A stretch of 64,000 nucleotides of DNA from Candidatus Limnocylindrales bacterium. Lineage in GTDB: Bacteria > Chloroflexota > Limnocylindria > Limnocylindrales > CSP1-4. The notes below the pieces were generated by a model. It was not told the DNA's origin. It did not search any database and was given only the letters and a program-made list of their open reading frames with translations. The stretch's first letter is position 1. Each line of letters begins with the position of its first letter. The position numbers and the translations under genes were made by a program. This document shows, piece after piece, positions 34,451 to 53,553 of the stretch. Where the stretch lies: assembly GCA_035308445.1 (NCBI GenBank), contig DATGGQ010000011.1, positions 23,902-87,901 of the forward strand, written 5' to 3'.

Positions 34451-34810
34451 CGGCGGAGCGGTCCCTCCTGCGATCCCCTACTCCGGAGGGCCTGGCGAGC
34501 GGGGCGCCCCCATTGCTCCCCGCCCGCCTGACCGTACCGTCGCAGGCCATTGTGACAGGTCGGCTGGCACGGTCAGTCAGGCCGGAGACGCTCGTCCGCG
34601 AGGTCGATTCGGCTCCGTCAACGGACCGACGGCGCGAACCGCCGAGGCGTTGTACCGTGGGGACACATTCACCGGCTCGCCCCGCGCTTGGGACTCCGGT
34701 TCGGCACCAAGGGTCGCGCGGCGCCGGCTGAACGGCCGATCTCCGCGATGCCGACGGAGCCCACCGAGGCAGCCAGCTCACTCGCGATCCACGCGCTCCG
34801 GAGGCATCTC

Positions 34811-35149
34811 GTGACGTACACCGACCGATCGATCACCTGCGTCGACTGCGGCCAGGAGTTCATCCATTCCGCCGACGATCAGGCCTACTACGCCGAGAAG
34901 GGCTTCGCCTCCGACCCGAAGCGCTGCGTGAGCTGCCGGGCCAGCCGCCGCGCCGCCCGCGAAGCCGGCTCCTCGTACGGCGCCCAGGACCTCGGCGGCC
35001 CGCGCGGCTACGAGCGCAGCGCCCCGACCCGCGAGTACTTCGCGGTCCTGTGCTCCGAGTGCGGCAACCAGGCGCAGGTCCCGTTCAAGCCCCGGATGGA
35101 CCGCCCGGTCTACTGCTCCGACTGCTTCCGCAAGGTCCACCCCGACTGA
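34811..35149 (+). CDS. tandem zf-trcl zinc-ribbon protein
   Basis: Two copies of CxxCGxxF...YYAEKGF...PKRCxxCR-type ribbon (ITCVDCGQEF...RCVSCR; LCSECGNQAQVPF...VYCSDCFRK). GTG start with GGAGG 6 nt upstream; longer TTG/ATG starts (34688/34748) possible. Confidence 0.6.
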   Translation: MTYTDRSITCVDCGQEFIHSADDQAYYAEKGFASDPKRCVSCRASRRAAREAGSSYGAQDLGGPRGYERSAPTREYFAVLCSECGNQAQVPFKPRMDRPVYCSDCFRKVHPD

Positions 35150-37867: not shown

Positions 37868-38506
37868 CTAGCGTAGTCCCCGATCCCGCTGATCGGAAGC
37901 CCCGAGCCGATCCACGATCGATTGCAGGTCCTCGGGCCGGTCGACGTCGACGAGGCTGCCGCCGTCCGGATCCACGGCTCGCCACTCGGCCTCGGGCACC
38001 CCGCTGGTCCGGAGGCGGTCGAGGAGCGATCGCAGCGACCGGTCTCCCCGGCCGAGCGCGGTCATGGAGGCGGCGCGAGCGGGCGCGACGCGAAGGGCCG
38101 CCGGCAGCGGCCGGCGATCGCCCGCGACGTCGAGGACGGCGGCTTCCGGCGGGCCAGGCGGATCGCCGCGTCCGAGCTCCGCGAGCAGTCGCCGGAGCAG
38201 CGCCGGCCGGACCAGCGGCATGTCGCCACCGATCACGATCGCGAGGTTCTCGTCGGTCGCGGCGAGCCCCGCGGCGAGGCCGACGAGCGGGCCGCCGAAT
38301 GGCTCTGGGTCGATCACGAACCGCGCGCCTGGACGGAGGGCAACGTTCGCCGACCCGGGAGCCAGCACGACGATGACCTCCTCGGCGACCGCCGTCGCCG
38401 CCGCGACGGCGTGGTCGAGCAGGGGCCGGCCGTCGAGGATCGCCTCGAGCTTCGATCCACCGAACCGCGACGACTGCCCGCCGGCGAGGACGATCGCGGC
38501 GGTCAT
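37868..38506 (-). CDS. mobA: molybdenum cofactor guanylyltransferase
   Basis: LAGGQSSRFG motif, MobA length. 4-nt overlap with selB stop. Confidence 0.8.
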   Translation of the reverse strand: MTAAIVLAGGQSSRFGGSKLEAILDGRPLLDHAVAAATAVAEEVIVVLAPGSANVALRPGARFVIDPEPFGGPLVGLAAGLAATDENLAIVIGGDMPLVRPALLRRLLAELGRGDPPGPPEAAVLDVAGDRRPLPAALRVAPARAASMTALGRGDRSLRSLLDRLRTSGVPEAEWRAVDPDGGSLVDVDRPEDLQSIVDRLGASDQRDRGLR

Positions 38507-40440
38507 GCCGGAACGGGCGGCTTCGGCGCCCGCGGGCCCGGGACGTGGCCCTCGGGCGTGCGCTTGAGGATCTCGCGGCGATCGAGGTCCTCAAGGATCG
38601 CAAGCACGTACCGTCGGCTCGTGCCGGTCGCGTCCCGGAACGCCGCGGGCGTCAGGGCGCCGATCGTCGCGAGGTCGAGGGCCTGCCGAGCCAGATCCCG
38701 ATAGGTCGAGGTCGCCCAGGCGAGGTCGGCTTCGAGCCGGATCAGCCGGCCGGCGGCGAACAACGCCCGGACGCCCTCGGGGGAGCAGCCGGCCGACCGG
38801 GCGGCCTCGGAGAGCGGCAGCGGAGCCGGGACCGCGAGGAGCCGCTCGAGGCGGTCCATCGCGGCCGAGGTCTCCGGTGGGATCGCCGGCCCGGCCGATG
38901 GATCCCGAAGCTGGTCGCCGCCGCGAGCGACGCGGCCCCGGCCGACGAGGTCGCCGATCACCGCGTCGACGGCCTGGATCGCCGCGGGCCCCGCGTCGCG
39001 GTCGAGGGCCGAACGGCGGCGAAGGCTGCGGAGCGCGATCGATCGAACATCGGCCACCGATCGGCCCGCGCTGCCGCTGACGGTGCCGAGGATGTCGGCC
39101 TCGAGCGCCGCGATGACGTCCGGCGCGAGCACGAGCCCGGTTGCCGGACCGCTCGCCGCTGCCTCGCGCTCGCCCGCGGAGGCGAGCGCGTTCCGGACGG
39201 CCATGACGCGAGCTGCCGGAAGCGCGCCATGCAGGGCGACGAGGGCATCGGCCGCGGCCGCGGCGTCGGCCGATTCGACCGCCTCGGCGAGGGCTCGTGC
39301 CCGCTCCACGTTGATTCGGCGACGAGCCACGCCGCGCGGGGCGATCGGATCGAGCACCCGGAGGGACGCGATCGGGAGGCCCGGCGAGGGCCGGCGGAGC
39401 ACGCCCCGGTCGCCGACGAAGGTCGCCACCGGCTCGGTGAGTCGGATCCGGACCCCGATCGAGCCATCGTCGAGATCGATCGCCTCGCGGCCCCGGGTCC
39501 GCACCTCCGCGTCGACCTGGCCGGTCCCGAGGTGGAGCCGCAGGACGGTGCCGTGGGCGGGCGGCCAGCGCTCGCCCGAGCGGCCTGCGAGATCCACGAT
39601 CGCCCGAAGGCGAACGAAGGGCCGATCGGACGGCTCGATCCCCGGATCGCCCGTGAGCACGTGGCCGCGCCGGAGCTGCCCTGCTGCGATACCGGCGACG
39701 TTCAACGCGGTCCGGCCGCCGTCATGCGCGTCCGCCGACCTGTTGTGGACCTCGAGACCGCGGACGCGCACGGGCTGCCCGCCCGGCTCGAGACGCAGGA
39801 TGTCGCCAGCAGCGATCGTGCCGCCGCGCAGCGATCCCGTGACCACCACGCCTCGACCCTTCACCGTGAACACCCGGTCGATGGCGAGCCGGCGGGGGCC
39901 GGCGGGAGCGGCCTGCCTCCGGACCGCGACCCGGTCACGAAGCGCGTGAAGCGCGGCGACGACGCCGGGCACGCCCGCCCCGCTCACGCCGGATGCCACG
40001 AGGATCGGCGAGCCCTCGAGGGTCGTCCGATCGAGAAGCGCCTGGACGTCGGCGGCCACCTCGTCGATCCGAGCGGCAGCGACCGCGTCGGCCTTCGTCA
40101 CGACCGCGACCCCGTCGCGGATCCCGAGCCCGTCGAGCAGCTCGAGGTGCTCCAGCGTCTGCGGCCGCGGTCCGTCGTCGGCGGCGACCACGAGCAGCGC
40201 CGCGTCGATCTCGCCCGCCCCGACCAGCATGTTGCCGACGTATCGGTCGTGCCCGGGCACGTCCACGAAGTCGAGGCTCGTGCCGTCGTCGAGGTCGAGG
40301 TGGGCATAGCCGACGTCGATCGTCAGGCCGCGAGCTCGCTCCTCGGGCAGGCGGTCGGCATCGATGCCGGTGATCGCCCGGAGCAGGGTCGTCTTGCCAT
40401 GGTCGATGTGGCCGGCGGTGCCGATGACGACCGTCGCCAT
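38503..40440 (-). CDS. selB: selenocysteine-specific translation elongation factor
   Basis: GTPase G1 [22 protein letters not shown]-like TKAD, ~640 aa with winged-helix C-terminal extension. Adjacent to selA and tRNA-Sec. Confidence 0.9.
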
Positions 40441-41814: not shown

Positions 41815-41911
41815 TGGCGGGAGCGCGTGGGAGTCGAACCCACCGCGCGACGCCAAGCGCCGCGCCACTCGTTTTGAAGACGAGGGAGCCCACCGGGACC
41901 CCTCCGCTCCC
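41815..41911 (-). tRNA. selC: tRNA-Sec (anticodon UCA)
   Basis: Reverse strand reads GGGAGCGGAGGGGTCCCGGTGGGCTCCCTCGTCTTCAAAACGAG...GGTGGGTTCGACTCCCACGCGCTCCCGCCA. T-arm GTGGG/TTCGACT/CCCAC, anticodon loop CU-UCA-AA, long variable arm, encoded CCA, ~97 nt. Exact 5' end and acceptor pairing need tRNAscan-SE. Confidence 0.8.
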
Positions 41912-41929
41912 GGTTCGAATGGTGCACCT

Positions 41930-43024
41930 ATGATCCGGCTCGTGGTGCAGACGCGAGAGCGGATTCGCCTCACCGAGCTGACCGAATGCGGCGGTTGCGC
42001 CGCGAAGCTCGGGGCCGACGTGCTCGAGGAGGCGCTCGCCGGGCTCGCCGTGGCCGGCGGCGGGCAACGTCCGGCCGAGCTGATCGCCGGTCTCGATCCG
42101 CCCGATGACGCCGCAGTCCACCTCGTCGCGCCGGACGTCGCGGTGATCGGGACCCTCGACTTCTTCCCGCCGATCGTCGACGACCCGTTCACCTACGGCG
42201 AGATCGCCGCGGCCAACGCCCTCTCCGATGTCTTCGCGATGGGCGGTCGGGTGCTGTTCGCGCTATCCGTCGCGGCCATGCCCGAGGATCTGCCGGTGGC
42301 GTCGTTCCGGGCCATCCTCGACGGAGCCGCCTCGGTCGTCCGCGAGGCGGGCGGGATCCTGGCCGGCGGCCACACGATCCGCGACCCCGAGCCGAAGTAC
42401 GGGCTCGCGGTCGTCGGTGTGGCTCACCCGGATCGGCTGCTCCGCAAGGGCGGCGCCCAGCCGGGCGATCGCCTCGTGCTGACCAAGGCGCTCGGAACCG
42501 GGCTCCTGGTCAGCGGCCATCGCCAGGGAAAGGCCTCCGACGCGGACCTCGATGGCGCCATCGTTGCGATGCGGGCCCTGAATCGCGAGGCCGCCGACGT
42601 CCTCGTCTCGCACGACGTCCGGGGCGCCACCGACGTGACCGGCTTCGGCCTCCTCGGCCACGGGCTCGAGATGGCCCGGGCGTCCGGCACGGCATTCGTC
42701 TTCGAGGCCACGGCGTTGCCCGCCCTGCCCGGCGCGCTCGACGCTGCTCGAGCGGGCGTCGAGACCGGCGGGGCCGCCCACAACCGCCGGTTCGTCGCCG
42801 GGTCCCTGACGGTCGGGCTCGACCTTCCGCCGGAGCTCGTCACGCTGGCCCACGATCCCCAGACCTCGGGCGGGCTGCTCGCGTCGATCCCGCCGAGCCA
42901 GGTCGAATTCGTCGATGCGGCGCTCTCCGCCGCCGGCGTCGACCACTGGTGGATCGGCCACGTGGAAGCCGCCGCCGAGCCCTCGCTCCGGCTCGCATCG
43001 CCCCGCCGAAGGCCCGCGGCGTAG
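41930..43024 (+). CDS. selD: selenide, water dikinase (selenophosphate synthetase), Cys-type
   Basis: LTELTECGGCAAKLG N-terminal motif (Cys, not Sec), AIR-synthase-like fold, 365 aa. C-terminal part of track ORF 41444..43024. Confidence 0.9.
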   Translation: MIRLVVQTRERIRLTELTECGGCAAKLGADVLEEALAGLAVAGGGQRPAELIAGLDPPDDAAVHLVAPDVAVIGTLDFFPPIVDDPFTYGEIAAANALSDVFAMGGRVLFALSVAAMPEDLPVASFRAILDGAASVVREAGGILAGGHTIRDPEPKYGLAVVGVAHPDRLLRKGGAQPGDRLVLTKALGTGLLVSGHRQGKASDADLDGAIVAMRALNREAADVLVSHDVRGATDVTGFGLLGHGLEMARASGTAFVFEATALPALPGALDAARAGVETGGAAHNRRFVAGSLTVGLDLPPELVTLAHDPQTSGGLLASIPPSQVEFVDAALSAAGVDHWWIGHVEAAAEPSLRLASPRRRPAA

Positions 43025-43085
43025 ACTCGGGCGACCGGCCCAGATCGGGTCGGCGATGAGCCACTGCTGACGCGCGGAGGATCCG

Positions 43086-45026
43086 TTGCCGAAGTCGTAC
43101 GTTTGTCTGACCCAGCCCCTCGTGCGAGACACGAAGGGCGGCGAGCTCCGTCCCGCGACGTGGGACGAGGCGCTCGACCGGACCGTCGCGGGACTCCGGG
43201 CCGCGCTCGCGAAGCGTCGCGAGGGCGAGCCGGTCCCGATCGGGATTTTCAGCTGCTCGAAGGCGACGAACGAGGTCAACTTCGCGGCGCAGAAGCTTTC
43301 CCGGCAGGTCCTGGGCAGCAACAACATCGACAGCTGCAACCGCACCTGACACGCCCCTTCTGTCGCCGGTCTGGCGACCGTGTTCGGGGCCGGTGGCGGC
43401 ACCAGCTCATATCGCGAGGCTGAAGAGACCGATCTGATCGTGCTCTGGGGCTCGAACGCCCGGGAGACCCATCCGATCTTCTTCCACCACCTCCTGCGCG
43501 GCGTCCGCAACGGCGCCCGGCTGTTCGCGGTCGACCCGCGCCGGACGTCCTCGGCCGAGTGGGCCGATTCGTGGCTCGGGCTCGATGTCGGCAGCGACAT
43601 CTCGCTGGCCAACGGGATCGCCCGGGAGATCATCCACGCCGGCCTCGCGAACCGCGAGTTCATCGGGCGGGCCACCGACCACTACGAGGACTACGCAGCG
43701 ACGGTCGAGGCCTACCCGCTCGACCGCGTCGAGCAGGATACCGGCGTGCCGGCAGCCGCCATCCGCGAGCTCGCGCACGCCTACGCCTCGGCCGACCGGG
43801 CGATGATCTGCTGGACGCTGGGCATCACCGAGCACCACAACGCGGTCGACAACGTCCTCGCGCTCATCGACCTCGCGCTGCTGACAGGCCATGTGGGGAA
43901 GTACGGATCGGGCCTGAACCCGCTCCGCGGCCAGAACAACGTCCAGGGCGGCGGCGACATGGGCGCCCTGCCCGACCGCCTGCCGGGCTTCCAGCACGTC
44001 GAGAACGACGCGCTCCGGCAGCGCTGCGAGATTGTCTGGGGCTGCGACCTGCCGGCGAAGCGCGGCTGGCACCTGTCCGGCATGTTCGAGGCGATGGATC
44101 GCGGCGACCTGACCGCGCTCTACGTCATCGGCGAGAACCCGCTCCAGTCCGAGGCCGACCGGCACATCACCGAGCGGCGCCTCCGGGGCCTCGACTTCAT
44201 GGTGGTCCAGGACATCGTCATGACGGCCACCGCCGAGATCGCCGACGTCGTCCTGCCGGCCGCCGCGGGCTGGGCCGAGTCGGAGGGCACCGTTACGAAC
44301 TCCGAGCGACGCGTCCAGCGGGTGCGCAAGGCCCTCGAGCCGCCGGGCGACGCCCGCGACGACCTCTGGATCATCTACGAGCTCGCCCGGCGGATGGGCA
44401 AGGACTGGGGCGAGGCCTCGGCCGAGCACACCTGGAACGAGGTCCGGGTCATCTCGCCAGTCCACCGCGGGATGACGTACAGGCGCCTCGAGGAGCTCGG
44501 CGGCATCCAGTGGCCGTGCTACGACGAGGACCACCCCGGTGAGCTGTTCCTCCATTCCCGGCTGCAGGAGAACCCCGTGCCCGGGCTGCGGGCGCCGTTC
44601 GTGCCGGTCGAGCACGATCCGCCGGTCGACACGCTCACCGACGAGTTCCCGATGCGGCTGACGACGGGTCGCCGGCTCGACTCCTACAACACCGGCGTCC
44701 AGACCGGCTCGTTCCGCTCGCCGATGCGCCGCGGCGAGACGCTCGACCTCTCGCCCGAGGACATCGAGCGGCTGGGCCTGACCGAAGGCGAGCGGGTCCG
44801 GATCAGCTCACGTCGCGGCCAGGTCGAGGCGCCGGTGCGCGCCGACTCGGGGCTGCGGCCCGGCCTCGCGTTCATGACGCTGCACTTCCAAGACGACGTC
44901 GCCACCAACCTCCTGACGATCGACGCCACGGACCCGAAGTCCGGCACGGCCGAGTTCAAGGCAACGGCGATCCGCGTCGAGAGGCTCGAGACCGCCGAGC
45001 AGCCCGAGGCGCCCGTCCCGGCCTAG
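43086..45026 (+). CDS. fdhA: formate dehydrogenase alpha subunit, molybdopterin (MopB) portion, selenocysteine-containing (UGA at 43347-43349)
   Basis: ORFs 43086..43349 and 43380..45026 are in the same frame. The TGA lies in NIDSCNRT-U-HAPSVAGL, matching the Sec position of E. coli FdhF (CARVUHGPSVA). Protein starts at LTQPLVR (just after the Mo-site 4Fe-4S region) and lacks the N-terminal Fe-S domains. TTG start with GGAGGA upstream. Confidence 0.85.
43363..43379 (+). promoter_or_regulatory. SECIS-like hairpin downstream of the fdhA UGA
   Basis: GTCGCC-GGTCT-GGCGAC: perfect 6-bp stem, apical loop containing GGUC, starting 13 nt after the UGA. Confidence 0.5.
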
Positions 45027-45046: not shown

Positions 45047-45469
45047 TCAGCCCAGCGCGCCGACCTGGGCGAGGAACGCCGGCGTCTCGAAGTAGACCCG
45101 GCCCCGCACGACCTTCCCGTCCTCGAGGTCGTAGGCGACCGCGAGCGGGACCCTGACCTCCTTGCCCGTCGCGGGCACACCGGCGAACTCGCCCGTGTGG
45201 CGGCCCACGAAGTCCCACTCCCCGACGGCCCGCCCCTCGCCGACGAGGAGCCGCTCGTTGATCGCCTCGGCGTGGAAGGCCTGCTGGTGGAAGTAGGTGA
45301 GCATCGCCGCGATCGCGGCCGGGCCGCGGAACTCCTGGCCCGTCGCCATGACCGTGAAGCACACGTCCGGGGCCATGATCTCGAGGTCGCTGTGGCCGGA
45401 CTCGAGGTAGCGGCTGATCGTCGCTCGCGTCTCGTCGACGCTCATCGTCCGCATCGTCGTCGCCGTCAT
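45047..45469 (-). CDS. SnoaL-like / NTF2-fold protein
   Basis: ~140 aa, MSVDETRATISRYLE pattern typical of SnoaL/ketosteroid-isomerase-like proteins. AGGGAGG RBS 7 nt upstream of chosen ATG. Confidence 0.6.
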   Translation of the reverse strand: MTATTMRTMSVDETRATISRYLESGHSDLEIMAPDVCFTVMATGQEFRGPAAIAAMLTYFHQQAFHAEAINERLLVGEGRAVGEWDFVGRHTGEFAGVPATGKEVRVPLAVAYDLEDGKVVRGRVYFETPAFLAQVGALG

Positions 45470-45573
45470 CGGGGTTCCTCCCTTCACGTCGTGGGGGCCG
45501 GTGGCGGCCCGCTGGGTGCAATGTCGCCACCGCGCGTTCCCGCGCCGTTCCCGCTGCGGTACGGTGTCGGCCG

Positions 45574-48500
45574 TTGGGAAGAGAGATGGCCGCGGGGAAG
45601 CTTCGGGCGCGCCTGCTCGGTGGCTTCGAGCTCGGCGTCGGCGACGGGGTGGTCGCGGCGTCGGCGTTCGAGCGCCCGTCGGGCCTCCGACTGCTCAAGC
45701 TCCTCCTCGTCACGCCCGGCCATCGTCTCCGGCGCGAGGAGGCGGCCGAGCTGCTCTGGCCCGACGCCGACCCGGAGCGGAGCGGCGCGAACCTGCGGAA
45801 GGCGATCCACTTCGCCCGCCGCGGCCTCGCGTCGGCACACCCGGGAGCGGAGGCGATCGTCGATGCCGACGGCCGGGAGGTGTGGCTCGATCGTGATCGG
45901 CTCGAGGTGATCGACGCCGACGAGCTTGCCGGCGCGATCGGCAGGGTCGAGGCTCGCCAGCGCGCCGGCGACGACCGCCTCGGCTCCGCCCTCGCGATCC
46001 TCGCCCGGTCCGGCGGCGAGACGCTGCTGCCCGCCGACCCGTACGAGCCCTGGCTCGAGCCCGCCCGGGAGGGCCTCCGCCAGCGCGCCCTCGAGGCGCT
46101 CGTCGTCGGAGCGGAGGCCGCCCGCGCTTCCGCGGATCGGGCCTCGGCGCTCGCCCTGGCCGGTCGAGCCCTGGCCCTGGAGCCGGCCGAGGAGCGGGCC
46201 CATCGGCTGCTCATCGAGCTCCACCTCGACGCCGGCGAGCTCCACGCCGCCCGGCGGCAGCTGCAGTCCTGCCGGCAGGCCGTCGCCGAGGCGTATGGCG
46301 TCGAGCCGGACCCGGCGCTGGCGACGCTCATCGCCGAGGCCACGGCAAGCCGGCCGAAGGCCGAGCGCGGCCCGATCGAGGCGCCGATCGTCGGACGCCG
46401 CGCGGAGCTCGAGCGAGCCCGGGCCGCGATCGACGGGGTGGCCGCCGGCGCACGCGCCGGCGCGATCCTGATCCGGGGCCAGGCCGGGATCGGCAAGTCG
46501 CGGGTGCTCCGCGAGGTCGTCGCCGAGGTGCGAGCCGCGGGCTGGTCCGTGCTCGAGCTGCGGGGCCTGGAGGACGCCGTGAGCGCACCGTTCGCTCCGG
46601 TGGCCCAGGCGATCGTCGCCGGGCTGGATGGCGATCTCGGGCTCGTTCCCGAGCCGGCCCGGAGCGCGATTCGCTTCGCCGATCCCACAGCCTCGGCGGC
46701 CGCGCCGGCCGTCGCGTTCGGCTCGGACGCTCCGGTCCAGCGGGGCCTGCTCGATGCGCTCGCCGAGGTCGGCCCCCGTGAGGTGCCCATCGCGCTGGCC
46801 GTCGACGATGCGCAATGGCTCGACCGGGCCAGCCTCGAGCTGCTCGAGGCCGCGATCGGCGGTTCCGCCGCGCGATCCGGCCTCGTCGTCGTGACGGTTC
46901 GGGACGAGCCGTCGCTCGTCAGCGGTCCCGTGAGCGTCGTCCTGGCAGCCGTCGAGCGAACGGGCGGCACCGATGTCAGGCTCGGTCCACTGGCCGAGGC
47001 CGAGATCCGCGACGTCATCGAACGGGATGTCGCGGGCGGACCGATCGCCGACGACCTCGCCGCCGCGATCGGCCAGCTCTCGGCGGGCGCGCCGCTGTTC
47101 GCCGCGGACCTGTTCCGTTCGGCGCGGGAGACCGCCCTCGTCGAAGAGCGGGACGGTCGCTGGTCGTTCCGGCGGGGCGTCACGTCCCTCCAGGTCCCCG
47201 AGAGCATCGTTCGCCTCGTCGACCGCCGCATCTCCCGGATGGGCCCGGTCCAACGGCTCATCCTGGCCACGGCCGCCGAGCTCGGCGACGTCGTGGCCTT
47301 CGATGATCTCGTCGAGACGGGCTCTGGCCCGGACGAGGTCCTCGACGCCGTCGACGCCGCGCTAGCCGCAGGGCTCGTCGTCGAGCGCGAGGGTCGTTAC
47401 GCCTTCGCCCACCCGCTGTACCGGGCGGCGCTGCGCCGCGGCCTCCCGCCGCGTGACCGGGCGTCGGTTCACCGGCGGATCGCGATCATGCTGTCGGCCG
47501 GGATCGACCCGCACGATCCCGACGCCGTTGCGCGCGCAGCGGCACGTGGGGTCGACGTGGCGGCCGTCGCCGGCCATGCGGCCAGCGCCGTCGAGCTGGG
47601 CACCCGCGCGGCCGCGCCGCTGGCGGTCGGCTTCGGAATCGGCGCGGGGATTCGGCAGGCCTACCTGTTCGATTTCCCGGCCGCCGTCACGACCCTCCAG
47701 CGCGCGCTCCGCCTGTGGGCTCGCCAACCGGAGGCCGACCGAGCGGCCATCTCGATCTCCCCGGCCTACGTCGAACTGGGCCAGGCGCTTCGACGGACGG
47801 GCGACGACACCGGCGCCGCGGCGGCGTTCCAGGCGGCGATGGACGCGGCCCGGGACGACGACGAGCTCGCGACGGCCGCGTCGGCCGCGGCCTGGCTGCC
47901 CTACGAGCACGGGCGGTTCCGGTCCGCTCTCGCGATCCTCGACGCGGTCGGATCCCGGCTGGCCAACCCCTTGGCCCGTGCCCAGGTCGACTCGGCGCGG
48001 GGCTGGATCATCGGCCGCGACGGCCACTGGACGGAGGCCGCGGCGATCCTGCAATCAGCCGTCCGTACCCTCGACGGCCGTGGGCCCAGCGTCGACCTGA
48101 TGCGCGCCCTCGATCGGCTCGCGATCGCCTATCGCGACAGCGGCGCGTCGCATCCCGCCGCGTCCATCCCGATCCTCGAGCGGGCGATCCACATGGCCGT
48201 CGAGCTCGGCCGGACGGGCGAGCGCGCCGCCTACGAGATGCACCTCGGCGGTGCGTTCCGCGACATCGGCCGGACGGACGATGCCGTCGCCGCGCTGGAT
48301 CGAGCGCGTGGCCTCGCCCGCCTCACCGGCGAGCTGTACATCGAAAGCGTCGTCGAGTGGATGTCCGCCGAGGCTGAGGAGACCCGCGGCGATCCCCGCG
48401 CCGCGATCGCCCACCGGCGGCGCGAGCTGGAGATCTTCACGGGGATTGGCGGCAACCCGCGGCACGAGGCGCTCGCCCACGCCCACATCGCCCACCTCGC

Positions 48501-48651
48501 TCGACGATTGGGCGACGATCAGCTGGCGAGGACGGAGGCCGAGCTGGCCCGTGTCGGGGCGCGACATTCCGGGATCGACGGGCTCGAGGCCCGGATCGAA
48601 TGGGCCCTCTCGACCGAGGATTGGTTCGCGTCGCCCGAAGACGTCGCCTGA
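45574..48651 (+). CDS. AfsR/SARP-family transcriptional regulator (OmpR-type winged helix + BTAD + NB-ARC ATPase + TPR)
   Basis: LRARLLGGFEL...LLKLLLV...AELLWPD (SARP DNA-binding), BTAD block, Walker A GQAGIGKSR, Walker B LAVDDAQWLD, long TPR-like C-terminus. 1025 aa. Confidence 0.8.
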   Translation: MGREMAAGKLRARLLGGFELGVGDGVVAASAFERPSGLRLLKLLLVTPGHRLRREEAAELLWPDADPERSGANLRKAIHFARRGLASAHPGAEAIVDADGREVWLDRDRLEVIDADELAGAIGRVEARQRAGDDRLGSALAILARSGGETLLPADPYEPWLEPAREGLRQRALEALVVGAEAARASADRASALALAGRALALEPAEERAHRLLIELHLDAGELHAARRQLQSCRQAVAEAYGVEPDPALATLIAEATASRPKAERGPIEAPIVGRRAELERARAAIDGVAAGARAGAILIRGQAGIGKSRVLREVVAEVRAAGWSVLELRGLEDAVSAPFAPVAQAIVAGLDGDLGLVPEPARSAIRFADPTASAAAPAVAFGSDAPVQRGLLDALAEVGPREVPIALAVDDAQWLDRASLELLEAAIGGSAARSGLVVVTVRDEPSLVSGPVSVVLAAVERTGGTDVRLGPLAEAEIRDVIERDVAGGPIADDLAAAIGQLSAGAPLFAADLFRSARETALVEERDGRWSFRRGVTSLQVPESIVRLVDRRISRMGPVQRLILATAAELGDVVAFDDLVETGSGPDEVLDAVDAALAAGLVVEREGRYAFAHPLYRAALRRGLPPRDRASVHRRIAIMLSAGIDPHDPDAVARAAARGVDVAAVAGHAASAVELGTRAAAPLAVGFGIGAGIRQAYLFDFPAAVTTLQRALRLWARQPEADRAAISISPAYVELGQALRRTGDDTGAAAAFQAAMDAARDDDELATAASAAAWLPYEHGRFRSALAILDAVGSRLANPLARAQVDSARGWIIGRDGHWTEAAAILQSAVRTLDGRGPSVDLMRALDRLAIAYRDSGASHPAASIPILERAIHMAVELGRTGERAAYEMHLGGAFRDIGRTDDAVAALDRARGLARLTGELYIESVVEWMSAEAEETRGDPRAAIAHRRRELEIFTGIGGNPRHEALAHAHIAHLARRLGDDQLARTEAELARVGARHSGIDGLEARIEWALSTEDWFASPEDVA

Positions 48652-48739
48652 CCCCGGGCTGACGGTCACGCCGGTCGGCACCGTCCGGCCCTGTTCCGAC
48701 GGGATGGCCGGCACGACCATCCCTGGCGGAGGTAGTGCC

Positions 48740-49540
48740 ATGTTCAAGCGACTCTTCGTGACCGGCGCCGCGATCGGCGCCGCATCGGCCTGGGCCGGCT
48801 TCGTCGCGGCTCGAACGATCTGGCGGCAATGGGGCATCGAGCCCGCCGAGCAGACCATCGCCCTGCCGGGAGACGACCTCGTCCCGGCGGCCGGCGCCGT
48901 CGAGACACGCGGGATCGACATCGCCGCACCGCCATCGGCCGTGTGGCCGTGGCTCGTGCAGATGGGCTATGGGCGGGCCGGCTGGTACAGCTATGACGGG
49001 CTCGACATCGACAAGCCGAGCCTCGATCGGATCGTGCCCGAGCTCCAGTCCATCGAGGTCGGGAACGTCATGCCCACGCATCCCGGTGGCGGGTTCGTCG
49101 TGAAGGTCGTCGAGCCCGAGCACGCGCTGGTCGTCTACAACGACCGGGCGACGGTCGAGGCCCAGGCCGCCACGTCCCGCGGCGCCTCGGGAGGCGGGAT
49201 CGAGGCCGCGTCGCCGAACGTCCGGGTCACGGGCGCCTACCTCGACAGGGCCGTCCCGGGCGAGTTCGAGGCGAGCTGGGCGTTCGTCATCGAGCCGACC
49301 GCGACCGGAACCCGTCTGGTCGAGCGCTTCCGGGCCCGGATGGAGCCGCCGAAGCGTCCGTCCGGCCAGCCGTTCAGCATCCCGGGATTCGCGTTCTCGC
49401 TCCTGGGCTTCGGCGTGTTCGTGATGGTCCGGCGCCAGATGCTCGGCATCCGCGATCGCGCCGAAGGCCGGCCGATCCGGCCGTCCATCCTGTTCCGGAC
49501 CGCTCGGCCGATGGGTCGGGCGGCCATTCGCCCGGCCTGA
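48740..49540 (+). CDS. SRPBCC-family (polyketide cyclase/dehydrase-like) protein with N-terminal TM/signal
   Basis: GGAGG RBS. N-terminal hydrophobic segment followed by a ~150-aa START/Bet v1-like region (WPWLVQMGYGRAGWYSYD). C-terminal part of track ORF 48251..49540. Confidence 0.6.
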   Translation: MFKRLFVTGAAIGAASAWAGFVAARTIWRQWGIEPAEQTIALPGDDLVPAAGAVETRGIDIAAPPSAVWPWLVQMGYGRAGWYSYDGLDIDKPSLDRIVPELQSIEVGNVMPTHPGGGFVVKVVEPEHALVVYNDRATVEAQAATSRGASGGGIEAASPNVRVTGAYLDRAVPGEFEASWAFVIEPTATGTRLVERFRARMEPPKRPSGQPFSIPGFAFSLLGFGVFVMVRRQMLGIRDRAEGRPIRPSILFRTARPMGRAAIRPA

Positions 49541-49603: not shown

Positions 49604-51520
49604 ATGGACCTGCACGTCGTGGGGCCGCTGGCCTCCCCGGCCGAGCGTGCCGCCGTCGATGCGATCGTCGGGCCGGCGACATCGGGCTGGCAGGGTGGCG
49701 CCCGGGACCCCATGACCGAGGGCCACGCCGTCCACGGCGGGCACGAGGCCCGCGCTCGACGCGACCTCCTCCTCCCCGCCCTCCACGCCCTCCAGGACCG
49801 GATCGGGTTCATCAGCCAGCCGGGGCTCAACTACGTTTGCCGGCGCCTGACCGTGCCGCCCGCCGAGGCCTACGGCGTGGCGACGTTCTACGCCCTGCTC
49901 TCGACGACGCCGCGGCCACCGACCGTCGCCCACGTCTGCGACGACATCGCGTGCCGGCTCGCGGGGGCCGAGGACGTGATCTCGGACGTCGAGCGGGCCC
50001 TCGGCCCAACGGGCTCCCCAGGTCGCGATGGTCGAACGACCTGGCTCCGGAGCCCGTGCCTCGGCCTGTGCGAGCGGGCGCCCGCGGCGATGGTCACGCG
50101 CTCGGGCGAGCGGCCGCGACGCGAGGCGTTCGGCCCCGTGGACGTGGCGGCCATCCTGGGCCACCTTGAGGTCGGCGATGTCGAGGCCGGCAGCGCGGTC
50201 GGCGGCGGCTGGCGGACGGCGGCTCGCGAATCCGTCCCGCAGGTCGGGCAGTCGGAGCTCCGGCTGCTGGCCAGGGTCGGCAGCGTCGACCCGACCTCGC
50301 TCGACGCCTATGTCGCGGCCGGCGGGTATCGGGCGCTTCGCAACGCCCTGGCGATGGGCCGCGACGCGACGATCCACGAGGTGACCGACTCGAAGCTCGT
50401 CGGGCGCGGCGGGGCCGCGTTTCCCACCGGGCGCAAGTGGTCGGCGGTCGCGGCACAGCCGGCCGAGCCGCACTACGCGGTCTGCAACGCCGACGAGTCG
50501 GAGCCGGGCACGTTCAAGGACCGGATCCTCATGGAGCTCGACCCGTTCGCGGTGGTCGAGTCGATGACGATCGAGGGCTACGCCACGGGGGCCGCGAAGG
50601 GCTACCTCTACATCCGCGGGGAGTACCCGCTCGCCGAGGGCCGGATGCTCGCCGCGATCGCGGCGGCCCGGGCGGCCGGCTACCTCGGGCCGGCGCTTGG
50701 CGCCCGCCTCGGCGCAGCCGGGGGCGAACCCTTCGACTTCGACATCGAGGTTCGGCGCGGCGCCGGCGCCTACATCTGCGGCGAGGAGACGGCGCTGTTC
50801 GAATCGATCGAGGGCCGGCGCGGCGAACCGCGCAACAAGCCACCGTTCCCGGTCGAGTTCGGGCTGTTCGGCAAGCCGACCGTCATCAACAACGTCGAGA
50901 CGCTGGCCAACGTCCTGCTCATCCTCGGTGATGGCGACGGGGTCGGCGGCGGGGCACGCTTCGCCGGGTCCGGCACCGACGGCTCGACCGGGCCGAAGCT
51001 CTTCTGCCTCTCCGGCAACGTGGCCCGGCCGGGGCTCTACGAGGTCCAGTTCGGCACGACCCTCCGTCAGCTGCTCGAGCTGGGTGGCGGCGTCCCCGGC
51101 CGGCAGTCGATCCGGGCGATCCTGCTCGGCGGCGCCGCCGGCGTGTTCGTCGGACCCGAGACGCTCGACACGCCCCTGACCTTCGAGGGCACCCGGGCGA
51201 TCGGGGCGACGCTCGGCTCGGGCGTCGTGATGGTCTTCGACGAGACCGCGGACATGGTCGGCACACTGCGGCGGATCGCCGCGTTCTTCCGCGACGAGTC
51301 ATGCGGCCAGTGCGTTCCCTGTCGGGTGGGCACGGTTCGCCAGGAGGAGCTCCTGGCGCGTCTCGCGGACGGCACCGCGGTCCGATCTCGCGAGGCGGAG
51401 CTCCAGCTCCTCGCCGACATCGGCCGGGCGATGCGCGACGCGAGCATCTGCGGCCTCGGCCAGACCGCGTCGTCGGCCATCGAGTCCGCCCTCCGGCAGC
51501 CGGAGCTGGTCGCGACATGA
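49604..51520 (+). CDS. fdsB: NAD-dependent formate dehydrogenase diaphorase subunit, NuoE-like/NuoF-like fusion (FdsG-FdsB)
   Basis: N-terminal thioredoxin-like 2Fe-2S domain (VCDDIACRL...LGLCERAP). C-terminal NuoF-like domain with FMN/NADH motifs (GRGGAAFPTGRKW, CNADESEPGTFKDR) and 4Fe-4S (ESCGQCVPCRVG). Confidence 0.85.
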   Translation: MDLHVVGPLASPAERAAVDAIVGPATSGWQGGARDPMTEGHAVHGGHEARARRDLLLPALHALQDRIGFISQPGLNYVCRRLTVPPAEAYGVATFYALLSTTPRPPTVAHVCDDIACRLAGAEDVISDVERALGPTGSPGRDGRTTWLRSPCLGLCERAPAAMVTRSGERPRREAFGPVDVAAILGHLEVGDVEAGSAVGGGWRTAARESVPQVGQSELRLLARVGSVDPTSLDAYVAAGGYRALRNALAMGRDATIHEVTDSKLVGRGGAAFPTGRKWSAVAAQPAEPHYAVCNADESEPGTFKDRILMELDPFAVVESMTIEGYATGAAKGYLYIRGEYPLAEGRMLAAIAAARAAGYLGPALGARLGAAGGEPFDFDIEVRRGAGAYICGEETALFESIEGRRGEPRNKPPFPVEFGLFGKPTVINNVETLANVLLILGDGDGVGGGARFAGSGTDGSTGPKLFCLSGNVARPGLYEVQFGTTLRQLLELGGGVPGRQSIRAILLGGAAGVFVGPETLDTPLTFEGTRAIGATLGSGVVMVFDETADMVGTLRRIAAFFRDESCGQCVPCRVGTVRQEELLARLADGTAVRSREAELQLLADIGRAMRDASICGLGQTASSAIESALRQPELVAT

Positions 51521-52602
51521 CGACCGAGTCCCGGGCCCGCGAGCCGCACGAGTACAGGCCGGCCCCGTACGACCCGCCGCCGGACCTGGCCCTCGTCATC
51601 ACGACGCCGATGGCTAGGGCCACCCACGTCCCGGCCGCGCCGCCGGTCGCGGCGCCAGCGCCGGTCGCCGTCACGATCGATGGCACCGCGGTCAGCGTCC
51701 CCGAGGGCTCGACGATCCTCGACGCCTGCCGGGCCGTGGGCAAGGACATCCCGACGCTCTGCTACCTCGAGAACCTGACCCCCGTGAACGTCTGCCGCGT
51801 CTGCGTCGTCGAGGTCAAGGGCGCCCGCGTCCTCGCTCCGGCGTGCTCCCGCCGGGTCGAGGCCGGCATGGAGGTCGAGACGGAATCCGAGCGGGTCCGG
51901 CACTCGCGCAAGACGGTGATCGAGTTCCTCGGCTCGTCGGTCGACACCTCGCTGGCCGGTCCGCAGCGGCCCGATGGCACGCTCGCCGCGTACGTCGAGC
52001 GCTACGGTGCCGACCCCTCGCGATTCGGGCCGGCCGCGTCACCGTCGCCGGCCGGTGCCCGCGACGCCCGCCAGCCCGGCCACCACCACGAGCCATCGGG
52101 CGCGGAGGCGGCGCAGGTGGCGACCGTTGGGCAGCCGGTGAAGGTCGACAACGACCTCTACGTCCGGGACTACTCGAAGTGCATCCTCTGCTACAAGTGC
52201 GTCGAGGCCTGCGGCGACGACGCCCAGAACACCTTCGCGATCGCGGTCGCGGGGCGCGGCTTCGATGCCCGGATCTCGACCGAGTGGAACGTGGGCCTGC
52301 CCGACTCGGCCTGCGTCTACTGCGGCAACTGCATCGGCGTCTGCCCGACCGGCGCGCTCATGTTCAAGTCGGAGCACGACATGCGGGCCGCCGGGACCTG
52401 GGACGAGGACGCTCAGTCCGTGACCTCGACGATCTGCCCGTACTGCGGTGTCGGCTGCGCCGTCGACGTCCACGTCCAGGACAACCGGATCGTGAAGGTG
52501 ACCTCGCCGATCGATTCGTCCGTCACCGACGGCCACCTCTGCATCAAGGGCCGCTTCGGCTTCGAGTTCACCAACGCCGGACCCCGCGCCGGCGAGGGCT
52601 GA
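51517..52602 (+). CDS. fdsA: formate dehydrogenase alpha subunit, N-terminal Fe-S portion (2Fe-2S ferredoxin + 2x[4Fe-4S] + Mo-site Fe4S4), stand-alone
   Basis: VTIDGTAVSVPEGSTILDACR...LCY...CRVCVVEV (2Fe-2S), CILCYKCVEAC / CVYCGNCIGVCP (ferredoxin 4Fe-4S), ends in TICPYCGVGC...HLCIKGRFGFEF (Molybdop_Fe4S4) and a stop. ATGA overlap with fdsGB. Confidence 0.85.
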   Translation: MTTESRAREPHEYRPAPYDPPPDLALVITTPMARATHVPAAPPVAAPAPVAVTIDGTAVSVPEGSTILDACRAVGKDIPTLCYLENLTPVNVCRVCVVEVKGARVLAPACSRRVEAGMEVETESERVRHSRKTVIEFLGSSVDTSLAGPQRPDGTLAAYVERYGADPSRFGPAASPSPAGARDARQPGHHHEPSGAEAAQVATVGQPVKVDNDLYVRDYSKCILCYKCVEACGDDAQNTFAIAVAGRGFDARISTEWNVGLPDSACVYCGNCIGVCPTGALMFKSEHDMRAAGTWDEDAQSVTSTICPYCGVGCAVDVHVQDNRIVKVTSPIDSSVTDGHLCIKGRFGFEFTNAGPRAGEG

Positions 52603-52611
52603 GGCCCCGTC

Positions 52612-53553
52612 CTAGCGGGCGGCCAGGAGGTCGCGCAGGTCGATGCGGCCGTCGTGGCTGTAAACGTTGAAGCCGTCGCCCCGCAGGAACCCGACGAGCG
52701 TCACCCCGAGCCGCTCGGCGAGGCGGATCGCCAGGTCGGACGGGGCCGAGACCGCACAGATGATCGGGATCCCGGCCATCGCCGCCTTCTGGACGATCTC
52801 GAAGCTGACCCGACCGGACACGAGCAAGAGGCGGTCCCAGAGCGGCAGCTCGTGCACCCGGACCCGTGAGCCGATCAGCTTGTCCAGGGCGTTGTGCCGG
52901 CCGACATCCTCTCGGATCGCGACGAGACGCCCGTCCGTCTCGAACAGGCCGGCGGCGTGGAGTCCGCCGGTCCGCTCGAACGCAGCCTGCGCGGCCCGGA
53001 GCCGGTCCGGCAGGGAGAGGACGACCGCGCGACTGACGACCGGGAGGCCGACGGGCAGCGGCTCGCACCGGACGGCGACATCGTCGATCGAGGCCTTGCC
53101 GCAGATCCCGCAGGAGGCGGTCGCGACGAAGTTGCGGGCCGCGAGGCGCGACGGGTCGAACGGCCGGGCGAGGCGGACGAGGACGCTGTCGTCGGGCTGC
53201 GACTGCGTCGCCGGGTCGCCGTAGCGGACGCCCGCGATCTCGTTGCCGGCGAGCAGGCCCTCCGTGGTCAGGAACCCGATCGCGAGCTCGTCCTCGTAGC
53301 CCGGCGTCCGCATCGTGACCGCGACCTGGACGGGTTCCTGGCGCGGGCCGGCCGCGCGAATCTCGAGCGGCTCCTCGCCGACGACGAGGTCGTCGCGCAC
53401 CTCGAGCACCTCGCCCCGGACCGCCACGACCTTCGTGCCGGTGACGTGGCGGATCGGCAGGGAGGGGTCGAGGGGCTCGGAGCGCTTGACCGGCGCCGGG
53501 CTCGGCTCGACGGGGGCCCGCCGAGCCGGTCCAGGCCCGGTCGGTGTCCTCAT
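52612..53553 (-). CDS. fdhD: formate dehydrogenase accessory sulfurtransferase
   Basis: FdhD motifs (ASCGICG, GRHNALDK), ~310 aa. Confidence 0.85.
   Translation of the reverse strand: MRTPTGPGPARRAPVEPSPAPVKRSEPLDPSLPIRHVTGTKVVAVRGEVLEVRDDLVVGEEPLEIRAAGPRQEPVQVAVTMRTPGYEDELAIGFLTTEGLLAGNEIAGVRYGDPATQSQPDDSVLVRLARPFDPSRLAARNFVATASCGICGKASIDDVAVRCEPLPVGLPVVSRAVVLSLPDRLRAAQAAFERTGGLHAAGLFETDGRLVAIREDVGRHNALDKLIGSRVRVHELPLWDRLLLVSGRVSFEIVQKAAMAGIPIICAVSAPSDLAIRLAERLGVTLVGFLRGDGFNVYSHDGRIDLRDLLAAR

Follow-up and report, generated by a model that had tools for sequence, protein, structure and literature searches.

The in-frame UGA at positions 43347–43349 of the window, the 64,000-nucleotide stretch of a Candidatus Limnocylindrales genome analysed here, is very likely decoded as selenocysteine (Sec) with a SECIS hairpin, in the gene for the catalytic half of a split FdsA-type formate dehydrogenase (FDH). 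Taken singly, the UGA is almost certainly a genuine Sec codon in a formate dehydrogenase gene, and the GUCGCC/GGUCU/GGCGAC hairpin (43362–43378) that follows it is almost certainly a real recoding hairpin. The Sec codon and SECIS of the catalytic half are ordinary and of a routine, known kind; the less ordinary point, of modest novelty, is the predicted splitting of the alpha subunit across a lineage of uncultured soil and freshwater Chloroflexota. Coordinates are given in Table 1.

Table 1. Features of the formate dehydrogenase and selenocysteine locus, in window coordinates
Feature	Position	Strand	Evidence and remarks
mobA-like guanylyltransferase (bis-MGD cofactor synthesis)	37868..38506	-	PF12804; downstream of selB
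selB (Sec-specific elongation factor)	38503..40440	-	TIGR00475, 289 bits against a cut-off of 242
selA (Sec synthase)	40444..~41799 (start approximate)	-	PF03841, E=1.5e-113; TIGR00474, 437 bits against 268
selC (tRNA-Sec, anticodon UCA)	41815..41913	-	ARAGORN; Rfam RF01852, 71.4 bits against a gathering score of 47
selD (selenophosphate synthetase, Cys-type)	41930..43024	+	TIGR00476, 337 bits against a cut-off of 125; motif TECGGCAAK
Shine-Dalgarno-like GGAGGA	43076..43081	+	4 nt 5' of the TTG start; read from the sequence
Catalytic-half gene	43086..45026	+	646 codons including predicted Sec88; TTG start at 43086
Predicted Sec codon UGA (codon 88; Mo/W-centre ligand)	43347..43349	+	Aligns to Sec140 of 1aa6; TGA in 80/80
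Predicted minimal SECIS stem-loop	43362..43378	+	Stem 43362-43367/43373-43378; loop GGUCU 43368-43372
FdsG-FdsB (NuoE-NuoF-like) fusion, NAD(H)/FMN diaphorase module	49604..51520	+	Pfam 2Fe-2S_thioredx, Complex1_51K, NADH_4Fe-4S; NCBIfam NuoF, NuoE
Predicted Fe-S half of the alpha subunit, 361 aa	51517..52602	+	Pfam Fer2_4, Fer4_7, PF04879
fdhD (FDH sulfurtransferase/maturation factor)	52612..53553	-	PF02634, E=2.6e-64; NF001943, 273.7 bits against 269

The UGA codon and its active-site context

The UGA, as originally predicted, joins two open reading frames of the same frame (frame 0; stop-to-stop ORFs 43086..43349 and 43350/43380..45026) and is flanked by the peptide NIDSCNRT-[TGA]-HAPSVAGL. 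Alignment with phmmer to Escherichia coli FdhH (1aa6) matched the TGA to Sec140 (the X in CARVxHGPSVAGL), bearing out the FdhF context proposed for it and locating the codon in the Sec/Cys active-site column, the column occupied by the UGA of E. coli fdhF. The codon also aligns with Cys386 of Rhodobacter capsulatus FdsA (6tg9_A), the metal ligand being Cys in that enzyme (CARVCHSP in the alignment) and Sec here. The catalytic half is collinear with FdhH residues 62–689 and keeps the aligned active-site residues, namely His89, which completes the U-H dipeptide common to both proteins, and Arg281, the equivalent of Arg333. Its Pfam domains are Molybdopterin (residues 8–435) and Molydop_binding (residues 523–627).

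Conservation was assessed in 80 sequences, comprising the window gene and 79 species-level relatives. Codon 88 is TGA in every one of them, and all 79 relatives, at ~80–90% amino-acid identity, read on in frame past it, so that the check for homologues terminating at this position found none. No Cys orthologue was present among the 80 closest sequences. Elsewhere in the window TGA serves as an ordinary stop (51518–51520 and 52600–52602). A crude scan for further in-frame TGA junctions returned gene boundaries only and, being too insensitive, missed the true site.

An in-frame stop (TGA, 43068–43070) lies upstream of the TTG start, and motifs resembling a Shine-Dalgarno sequence, found with a loose regular expression, precede the homologous GTG or TTG in most relatives. 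The relatives are homologous from (L/V)PKSYVRLTQPL onwards, and nothing in frame before this point is conserved.

The probable SECIS hairpin and its selective constraint

The perfect hairpin described in the original prediction is present, but it starts 12 nt after the TGA and not 13. It spans 17 nt with a perfect 6-bp stem, and its GGUC lies at nt 22–25 counted from the U of the UGA, the whole GGUCU loop occupying nt 22–26. Folded alone, the hairpin has an energy of -9.5 kcal/mol; in a 60-nt context its pair probability is ~0.8, and across the 80 sequences it appears in the minimum free energy (MFE) structure of 64, with a mean pair probability of 0.66, which answers in its favour the question of whether a stable hairpin forms. 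The suggested fold of 43347–43400, in contrast, gave a different, longer hairpin with an energy no better than that of shuffled sequences (z = -0.32) against a background of 72% GC, and the peptide VAGLAT by itself fixes four of the six base pairs of the short one. The evidence that the hairpin exceeds chance accordingly comes from the 80 sequences and not from the single sequence. Two lower-stem extensions in the window's own MFE structure (43350-53/43379-82 and 43353-57/43386-90) are not conserved in the relatives.

Among the 80 sequences, the gene contains 168 conserved four-fold-degenerate codons, of which only four have an invariant third base, and all four lie inside the hairpin. One of the hairpin's invariant codons is the GGT that supplies the loop U (80/80), although GGT is otherwise rare, making up ~10% of Gly codons in the catalytic-half gene. 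Nowhere else in the gene do invariant wobble positions run on for as long as in the hairpin (five codons, the next longest run being two), which is also the gene's sole stretch in which every wobble base is invariant, while flanking wobble sites vary; a single G-U change is the only deviation in the 80 sequences. The RNA of the hairpin is thus constrained beyond the needs of the protein, and this synonymous constraint is the main evidence for a SECIS. Pair counting over the same sequences found no compensatory double changes, because the hairpin is practically invariant in this clade. The constraint may therefore reflect primary sequence rather than RNA structure, two causes that covariation does not separate here.

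A covariance-model scan, which had been proposed as a check, was successful in register but not in score. At the Rfam gathering thresholds no SECIS was returned, only the tRNA-Sec. An E-value scan of 43300–43450 gave SECIS_3 (RF01989) and SECIS_2 (RF01988) as its two best matches, both on the forward strand, spanning the UGA and placing the apical stem-loop on 43362–43378, but at 15.8 and 14.8 bits, far short of the respective gathering scores of 63 and 70, so that the hairpin is no member of either family by the Rfam criterion.

The hairpin resembles the E. coli fdhF SECIS, the sequence of which was verified in 5413 genomes, in that the stem-loop starts 12–13 nt past the UGA and GGUC occupies nt 22–25, encoded by the Gly-Leu codons GGU CUG. 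It differs in its GC-rich stem, which is perfect over 6 bp and more stable than the E. coli element (-4.2 kcal/mol), in its loop of 5 nt, and in U17 (43363), which is bulged in E. coli but here pairs with A31 (43377) without a bulge. Unlike fdhF, it also has no conserved lower stem. A blastn search of the region against E. coli genomes gave no match.

Selenocysteine machinery and upstream neighbours

The claim that selA, selB, selC and selD all lie within 5 kb was confirmed, the four being at most 4.85 kb upstream of the gene. SelA, SelB and SelD each score above the NCBIfam equivalog cut-offs, and SelB carries a C-terminal winged-helix SECIS-binding domain (PF09107, SelB-wing_3, residues 592–633), as does E. 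coli SelB. The selD gene lies immediately upstream of the catalytic-half gene on the same strand with a gap of 61 nt, and 46 of the 79 relatives likewise carry it upstream in the orientation of that gene; tRNA-Sec was detected in 39 of 60 related loci scanned. NCBIfam MobA models matched the product of the mobA-like gene below their cut-offs. A promoter and terminator scan found neither.

No selenoprotein is more common in bacteria than FdhA, whose gene often forms a cluster with sel genes (Zhang et al. 2006, PMC1794560). The use of Sec at this locus agrees with the model of FdhA-sel co-inheritance put forward in that study.

A predicted split of the alpha subunit

The original label of FdhA/FdhF holds for the Sec protein as the catalytic part of an FDH, but the protein appears to be only the molybdopterin half of a split FdsA-type alpha subunit, without an Fe4S4 domain of its own. 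A Pfam search found no PF04879 (Fe4S4 domain) in it, and TIGR01591 (Fdh-alpha) scored 625.3 bits, under the cut-off of 666.25, covering only profile positions 54–672. That the N-terminal [4Fe-4S] domain of FdhF and FdsA is absent from the Sec protein had at first been overlooked. Profile positions 1–53 match residues 305–357 of the Fe-S protein encoded further downstream, which comprises a 2Fe-2S domain, a 4Fe-4S dicluster and a C-terminal Molybdop_Fe4S4 domain (FS0), and ends in ...CPYCGVGC...LCIKGRFGFEFTNAGPRAGEG*. The two halves, when concatenated, align as one collinear stretch to residues 18–932 of R. capsulatus FdsA (6tg9_A), interrupted only where they meet, by an insertion of 11 aa. 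In the 32 relatives whose match extends undisrupted as far as the Fe4S4 motif, the Fe-S gene ends 0–22 aa beyond the match end, just past CIKGRFGF.F, and no further molybdopterin domain was found next to the Fe-S protein. A frameshift or a longer upstream ORF was considered as the source of the missing N-terminus and rejected, since what precedes the start in frame is unconserved junk in every relative, and selD ends only 61 nt before it.

By homology, then, the catalytic half and the product of 51517–52602 are an FdsA-type (NuoEFG-like) alpha subunit split between two genes, and domain content together with conserved synteny places the predicted cut precisely where the Fe4S4 (FS0) domain gives way to the molybdopterin domain. 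We infer that the two halves are co-expressed and physically assembled, and the enzyme presumably has the NAD+ link of the FdsABG type.

The Fe-S gene overlaps the stop of fdsGB with its start (ATGA), and fdhD is convergent with it, a position that fdhD also holds in 26 relatives. The fdsGB fusion lies downstream of the Sec gene on the same strand in 57 of the 79 relatives, at distances from the end of the Sec gene that range from ~30 nt to ~5 kb across loci, and directly follows it in relatives L072 and L009; in the window a stretch of 4.5 kb with unrelated genes, among them one on the opposite strand, lies between the Sec gene and the pair formed by fdsGB and the Fe-S gene. The resulting order, in which the catalytic half is followed by fdsGB and then by the Fe-S half, is permuted, and both the split and the permuted order are conserved across Limnocylindria relatives. 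When the Fe-S half was searched against a representative library, many of the matches were fragments, and fused forms appeared at 48% identity or less.

The locus has the domain set of FdsABG from R. capsulatus (6tg9), Cupriavidus necator and Methylobacterium extorquens (FDH1, 7vw6/7e5z), namely a NuoE-like 2Fe-2S protein, a NuoF-like FMN/4Fe-4S protein and a NuoG-like Fe-S N-terminus with FS0 and Mo-bisMGD, and likewise has an adjacent maturation gene of the FdhD/FdsC type. Where FdsABG would lead one to expect a single alpha polypeptide with the Fe-S arm, FS0 and Mo-bisMGD, there are two here (51517–52602 and 43086–45026), and, unlike in FdsABG, the gene order is permuted and the catalytic half stands beside sel genes. 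Compared with E. coli FdhH, the Sec protein is without the N-terminal Fe4S4 domain, and its partner is a NuoEF-like diaphorase instead of hydrogenase 3. A precedent within the superfamily for a molybdopterin-subunit domain on a separate polypeptide is formylmethanofuran dehydrogenase FwdB/FwdD, in which the C-terminal Molydop_binding cap domain is encoded apart, whereas in the present case the Fe4S4 domain of the N-terminus stands apart together with the entire Fe-S arm; 5t5i was among the phmmer matches of the catalytic half.

It is possible, though we hold it only tentatively and think it somewhat improbable, that this constitutes an undescribed architecture of metal-dependent FDH in Limnocylindria, perhaps found only there, in which FS0, otherwise always on the catalytic polypeptide, is supplied in trans and the selenoprotein half has moved beside selD and selCAB. 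A literature search on split FdsA or on FDH in Limnocylindria found nothing relevant, which is weak evidence of novelty.

Alternative readings

That the TGA is a real stop, leaving a pseudogene in decay or else two independent genes, one for an 87-aa peptide and one for a protein of 548 aa started from the GTG at 43380, is barely credible. The GTG does appear in the ORF list, and every public gene model found for the catalytic half starts after the TGA (~542 aa), but the TGA is held without exception at the active-site column, the ten codons from the TGA to 43380 are 100% conserved in amino acids despite synonymous changes, the 548-aa product would lack the residue that binds the metal as well as a portion of domain I, and Sec machinery adjoins the gene. 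With the UGA read as Sec, the structure bound by SelB could instead be a longer helix (43361–43370/43389–43398) with a structured apical region. This helix is the MFE structure of the 54-nt fragment (-24.2 kcal/mol) and the RNAalifold consensus (columns 15–24/43–52), with 88% of cells pairing and C/U changes in its 3' strand tolerated opposite G. The pair of columns 25 and 42 is, however, broken in 48 of 51 distinct sequences and that of columns 14 and 53 in 25 of 51, and its pairs reach a mean probability of 0.056, where those of the short hairpin reach 0.66. Its 3' strand is free at wobble sites while its 5' strand is invariant, so that its pairing is not the source of the constraint; the invariant U24 would moreover form a weaker U-G pair in it where the preferred codon GGC would give C-G, and nothing in the E. 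coli element corresponds to its loop. The longer helix is accordingly a very unlikely candidate, and the GGUCU hairpin is the preferred one.

The Sec protein could also be a stand-alone cluster-less molybdoenzyme, like DorA, TorA and BisC, with a soluble partner, the fdsGB and Fe-S genes belonging to another complex. In the window the Sec gene and selD look like a two-gene unit, and the 4.5-kb interruption and the variable spacing across loci described above are in keeping with such an arrangement. It is nevertheless very unlikely, as the Fe-S protein ends precisely in the FS0 that the Sec protein lacks and has no other molybdopterin domain adjoining it, the two halves are collinear with intact FdsA, same-strand linkage recurs in most loci with direct adjacency in some, and the Sec protein is nearest to FdhF and FdsA and not to the cluster-less DMSO reductases. 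The reading of the two genes as halves of one alpha subunit is therefore preferred.

Proposed mechanism

On the model of E. coli fdhF, the winged-helix domain of SelB would bind the stem-loop as the ribosome arrives at codon 88. The factor, encoded 3–5 kb upstream, would deliver Sec-tRNA(Sec) made by selC, selA and selD of the same cluster, and after Sec insertion translation would run on to 45026. The product is, by homology, the Mo/W-bisMGD catalytic half of an FdsABG-type FDH, with Sec88-His89 and Arg281 as the probable formate/CO2 active site. FS0 and the electron-relay Lys (CIKG) reside on the separate Fe-S protein, the gene of which is probably co-transcribed with the NuoE/NuoF-like fusion, giving a putative electron path from Mo/W to FS0 in trans, the Fe-S chain, FMN and finally NAD+. 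FdhD and the MobA-like protein would be involved in cofactor maturation.

Implications for annotation and enzyme architecture

The chief importance of the Sec codon and the SECIS is for annotation: as the public models start after the TGA, database entries lack both the active-site residue and 98 residues of the N-terminus. The predicted split of the alpha subunit suggests that the FS0 domain of an FDH can come from another polypeptide, which is relevant to the modular engineering of CO2-reducing FDHs, and it bears on the evolutionary joining of NuoG-like Fe-S arms and molybdopterin modules. Such an arrangement, if real, might tie production of the catalytic half to the availability of selenium, or it might reduce the cost of failed UGA decoding. 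The locus also documents probable Sec use in an abundant, uncultured soil and freshwater lineage. FdhA is the sole selenoprotein gene seen at this locus.

An in-frame TGA at the selenocysteine position of a formate dehydrogenase

The window (72% G+C) carries a TGA at 43347-43349 that shares its frame with an ORF at 43086..43349 and with the next ORF, which runs to 45026; the original prediction that it joins two same-frame ORFs, with the flanking peptide ...NIDSCNRT-*-HAPSVAGLATVFG..., was borne out by both coordinates and translation. Residues 8-635 of the joined protein align with residues 62-689 of Escherichia coli FdhH (1aa6) in a phmmer search against PDB sequences, and the TGA takes the position of the X in CARVxHGPSVAGL, that is, of Sec140, the active-site column that had been proposed. 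The His beside this column and the Arg of NP(V/L)RGQNNVQG, equivalent to Arg333, are likewise conserved. The TGA also aligns on the active-site Cys of Rhodobacter capsulatus FdsA (6tg9_A), and among NCBIfam models the Sec protein matches TIGR01591 (formate dehydrogenase subunit alpha) best.

Eighty loci came from a search of the GTDB species representatives, and almost all of them bear titles of Chloroflexota or Candidatus Limnocylindria/Limnocylindrales MAGs. All 79 loci that include the site have TGA as the codon, none of the homologues ends there, and the 19 residues 3' of it are almost invariant. This conservation of the codon and of the residues that follow rules out an error in sequencing, a nonsense mutation confined to one strain and a genuine terminus. 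Neighbouring genes in the window end with TGA as an ordinary stop, indicating that the genetic code is not reassigned. There is little doubt that TGA 43347-43349 is decoded as selenocysteine, and the overall interpretation first offered for this gene is supported.

At least 120 matches at 80-100% identity occur in the protein database, and all of those listed are models of about 542 aa starting after the TGA, indicating that gene callers halt at this codon everywhere. The matches listed (P0001-P0120) share a systematic mis-annotation, in which the selenoprotein is labelled a truncated 'YjgC / formate dehydrogenase major subunit'. The split Sec gene also turns up, with 77-83% identity, in loci L006, L014 and L050, titled Dormiibacterota, Deferrimicrobiaceae and Methylomirabilota MAGs, which could reflect mis-binned contigs or horizontal transfer.

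The selA, selB, selC and selD genes expected nearby were all identified (see table), with a MobA-like gene after selB, and selD, selC, selA, selB and mobA are often upstream of the Sec gene in relatives. Of 75 Sec-using genomes, 67 have FdhA, which is the selenoprotein most widely found in bacteria and often clusters with sel genes (PMC1794560), so the finding of Sec and a SECIS is in itself routine.

Features of the window around the Sec gene
Feature	Position	Strand	Remarks
SbcC-like SMC/AAA ATPase	30867-33236	-	unrelated to Sec finding
Metallophos nuclease-like gene	33233-34450	-	unrelated to Sec finding
Protein with two treble-clef zinc-finger domains	34556-35149	+	unrelated to Sec finding
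SelB	38503-40440	-	above NCBIfam equivalog cut-off; SelB-wing_3 domain
SelA	40444-~41799	-	above NCBIfam equivalog cut-off
tRNA-Sec	41815-41913	-	both ARAGORN and Rfam
SelD	41930-43024	+	above NCBIfam equivalog cut-off; Cys type
Sec gene	43086-45026	+	646 codons including TGA as Sec88
SnoaL-like gene	within 45047-49540	-	between Sec gene and fdsGB
Large BTAD/AAA_16/TPR regulator	45574-48651	+	between Sec gene and fdsGB
ORF without Pfam match	48251-49540		between Sec gene and fdsGB
fdsGB	49604-51520	+	fusion of NuoE-like 2Fe-2S, NuoF-like FMN and NADH_4Fe-4S
Fe-S half	51517-52602	+	361 aa; 2Fe-2S domain, 4Fe-4S dicluster, C-terminal Molybdop_Fe4S4
fdhD	52612-53553	-	convergent with Fe-S half

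Synonymous constraint in the downstream hairpin

The perfect inverted repeat GTCGCC/GGTCT/GGCGAC and its GGUC loop, predicted 13 nt downstream of the TGA, were found at 43362-43378, starting 12 nt past it. Four of the six base pairs are already set by the peptide V-A-G-L-A-T via first and second codon positions, which leaves just 43364-43376 and 43367-43373 to be decided by the codons chosen. Across the 80 aligned sequences the wobble bases within 43362-43376 are all invariant; the 5'-adjacent wobble sites 43355, 43358 and 43361 vary freely, as do most 3' sites (43382, 43388, 43391, 43394, 43397, 43400 and beyond), the exceptions being 43379, nearly fixed (C in 75/80), and the two-fold Phe site 43385, fixed. 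Over the 404 conserved degenerate codons of the gene, mean third-position entropy is 0.76 bit and 7.9% are invariant; V-A-G-L-A (43362-43376) is the longest invariant-wobble run in the gene, at five codons against two for the runner-up. An invariant third base occurs in 4 of the 168 conserved four-fold codons, all 4 within the hairpin. GGT makes up about 10% of glycine codons in the gene family, yet is used in 80/80 sequences at the hairpin Gly, where its T supplies the U of the GGUC loop. This GGUC lies at nt 22-25 from the U of UGA, as in the E. coli fdhF SECIS, the sequence of which was confirmed in 5413 genomes.

Folding of a 54-nt fragment did not return the predicted hairpin, giving instead a different, longer one with an energy typical of shuffled sequence (z=-0.32), so single-sequence thermodynamics is unhelpful here. 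This long alternative helix is also the RNAalifold consensus, but 48 of the 51 distinct sequences break one of its pairs, and its wobble sites are variable on the 3' strand and not on the 5' strand, so that it fails to explain the constraint. The short hairpin is in the window's MFE, with a pair probability of about 0.8 in 60 nt of context, and within the MFE of 64/80 sequences, with a mean pair probability of 0.66 versus 0.056 for the long helix. Covariation sought in the hairpin across the 80-sequence set was not found, the element never changing, and its structure is thus inferred from constraint and analogy rather than proven. The top two Rfam matches in the region, SECIS_3 and SECIS_2, are aligned on the UGA and score 15.8 and 14.8 bits, far under the gathering thresholds of 63 and 70. 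The short hairpin very likely forms the SECIS core.

The Ser codon at 43359-43361, which abuts the invariant hairpin, divides the clade 37 versus 43 between TCN and AGY, a switch that takes at least two nucleotide changes and alters possible lower-stem pairings. GC3 of the first 50 codons past the TGA (43350-43500) is about 0.80 versus 0.94 for the gene, and the rare GGT is dominant at 43386-88 (49/80) and 43392-94 (64/80), which may reflect a further RNA-level or translation-speed constraint 3' of the SECIS.

An alpha subunit split between two genes

The FdhA label first given to the gene is apt in part, the absence of the Fe4S4 domain having been missed: the Pfam domains of the Sec protein are limited to Molybdopterin, starting at residue 8, and Molydop_binding, and its TIGR01591 match starts at profile position 54 and scores under the cut-off. 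Between the end of selD (43024) and the TTG start (43086) are an in-frame stop (43068-43070) and GGAGGA (43076-43081). Homology starts at (L/V)PKSYVRLTQPL in all relatives and in-frame upstream sequence is unconserved, indicating that the truncation is native and conserved; in L057, L076 and L079 a stop lies immediately ahead of a GTG.

ORF clustering of the 80 loci recovered a conserved gene pair downstream of the Sec gene on the same strand, fdsGB and the Fe-S half; in the window an ATGA overlap joins the stop of one to the start of the other. The Fe-S half ends in ...CPYCGVGC...LCIKGRFGFEFTNAGPRAGEG*, and its residues 305-357 match TIGR01591 positions 1-53, exactly those missing from the Sec protein. 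Concatenated, the halves give one collinear alignment to R. capsulatus FdsA (6tg9_A residues 18-932; 563 bits), disrupted solely by an 11-residue insertion at their junction. The Sec protein is the Sec-containing catalytic half of a split FdsA-type formate dehydrogenase, and the two halves are likely to form a functional heteromeric enzyme.

Among relatives, 57 of 79 loci have fdsGB downstream on the strand of the Sec gene and 44 have the Fe-S gene there, most of the others being restricted by contig ends. Thirty-two loci have a match that runs without disruption as far as the Fe4S4 motif, and in these the stop of the Fe-S gene comes 0-22 residues past the match end, just beyond CIKGRFGF.F. 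Fused forms of 770-1400 aa appeared only at ≤48% identity when the Fe-S half was compared with 50%-identity representatives, a figure that is only indicative as this list is full of fragments. In L072 and L009 fdsGB directly follows the Sec gene, and the variable 45047-49540 insert that separates them in the window is absent. Gene order across relatives points to an ancestral arrangement in the clade of catalytic half (Sec), fdsGB, Fe-S half and, on the opposite strand, fdhD.

In the FdhF and FdsA families the presence of FS0, the Molybdop_Fe4S4 [4Fe-4S] domain, and the Mo domain on one polypeptide is defining, whereas here the alpha subunit is split at the FS0/molybdopterin boundary and the gene order is permuted. 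No description of such a split alpha subunit was found in the literature searched, a silence that hints weakly at novelty; the split is of moderate interest to formate dehydrogenase researchers and of low general surprise.

The position of the codon, its conservation as TGA, the synonymous constraint in the hairpin, the presence of the Sec machinery, the way in which the domains of the two halves complement each other and the conserved synteny are all shown directly. Following the E. coli paradigm, SelB would bind the 17-nt stem-loop and deliver Sec-tRNA(Sec) at UGA88, and Sec88 would be a ligand of Mo or W, as FdsABG structures also suggest. On the model of those structures, electrons would reach FS0, which lies on the separate Fe-S subunit, by way of the conserved CIKG Lys, and the Fe-S chain would then carry them to FMN and NAD+.
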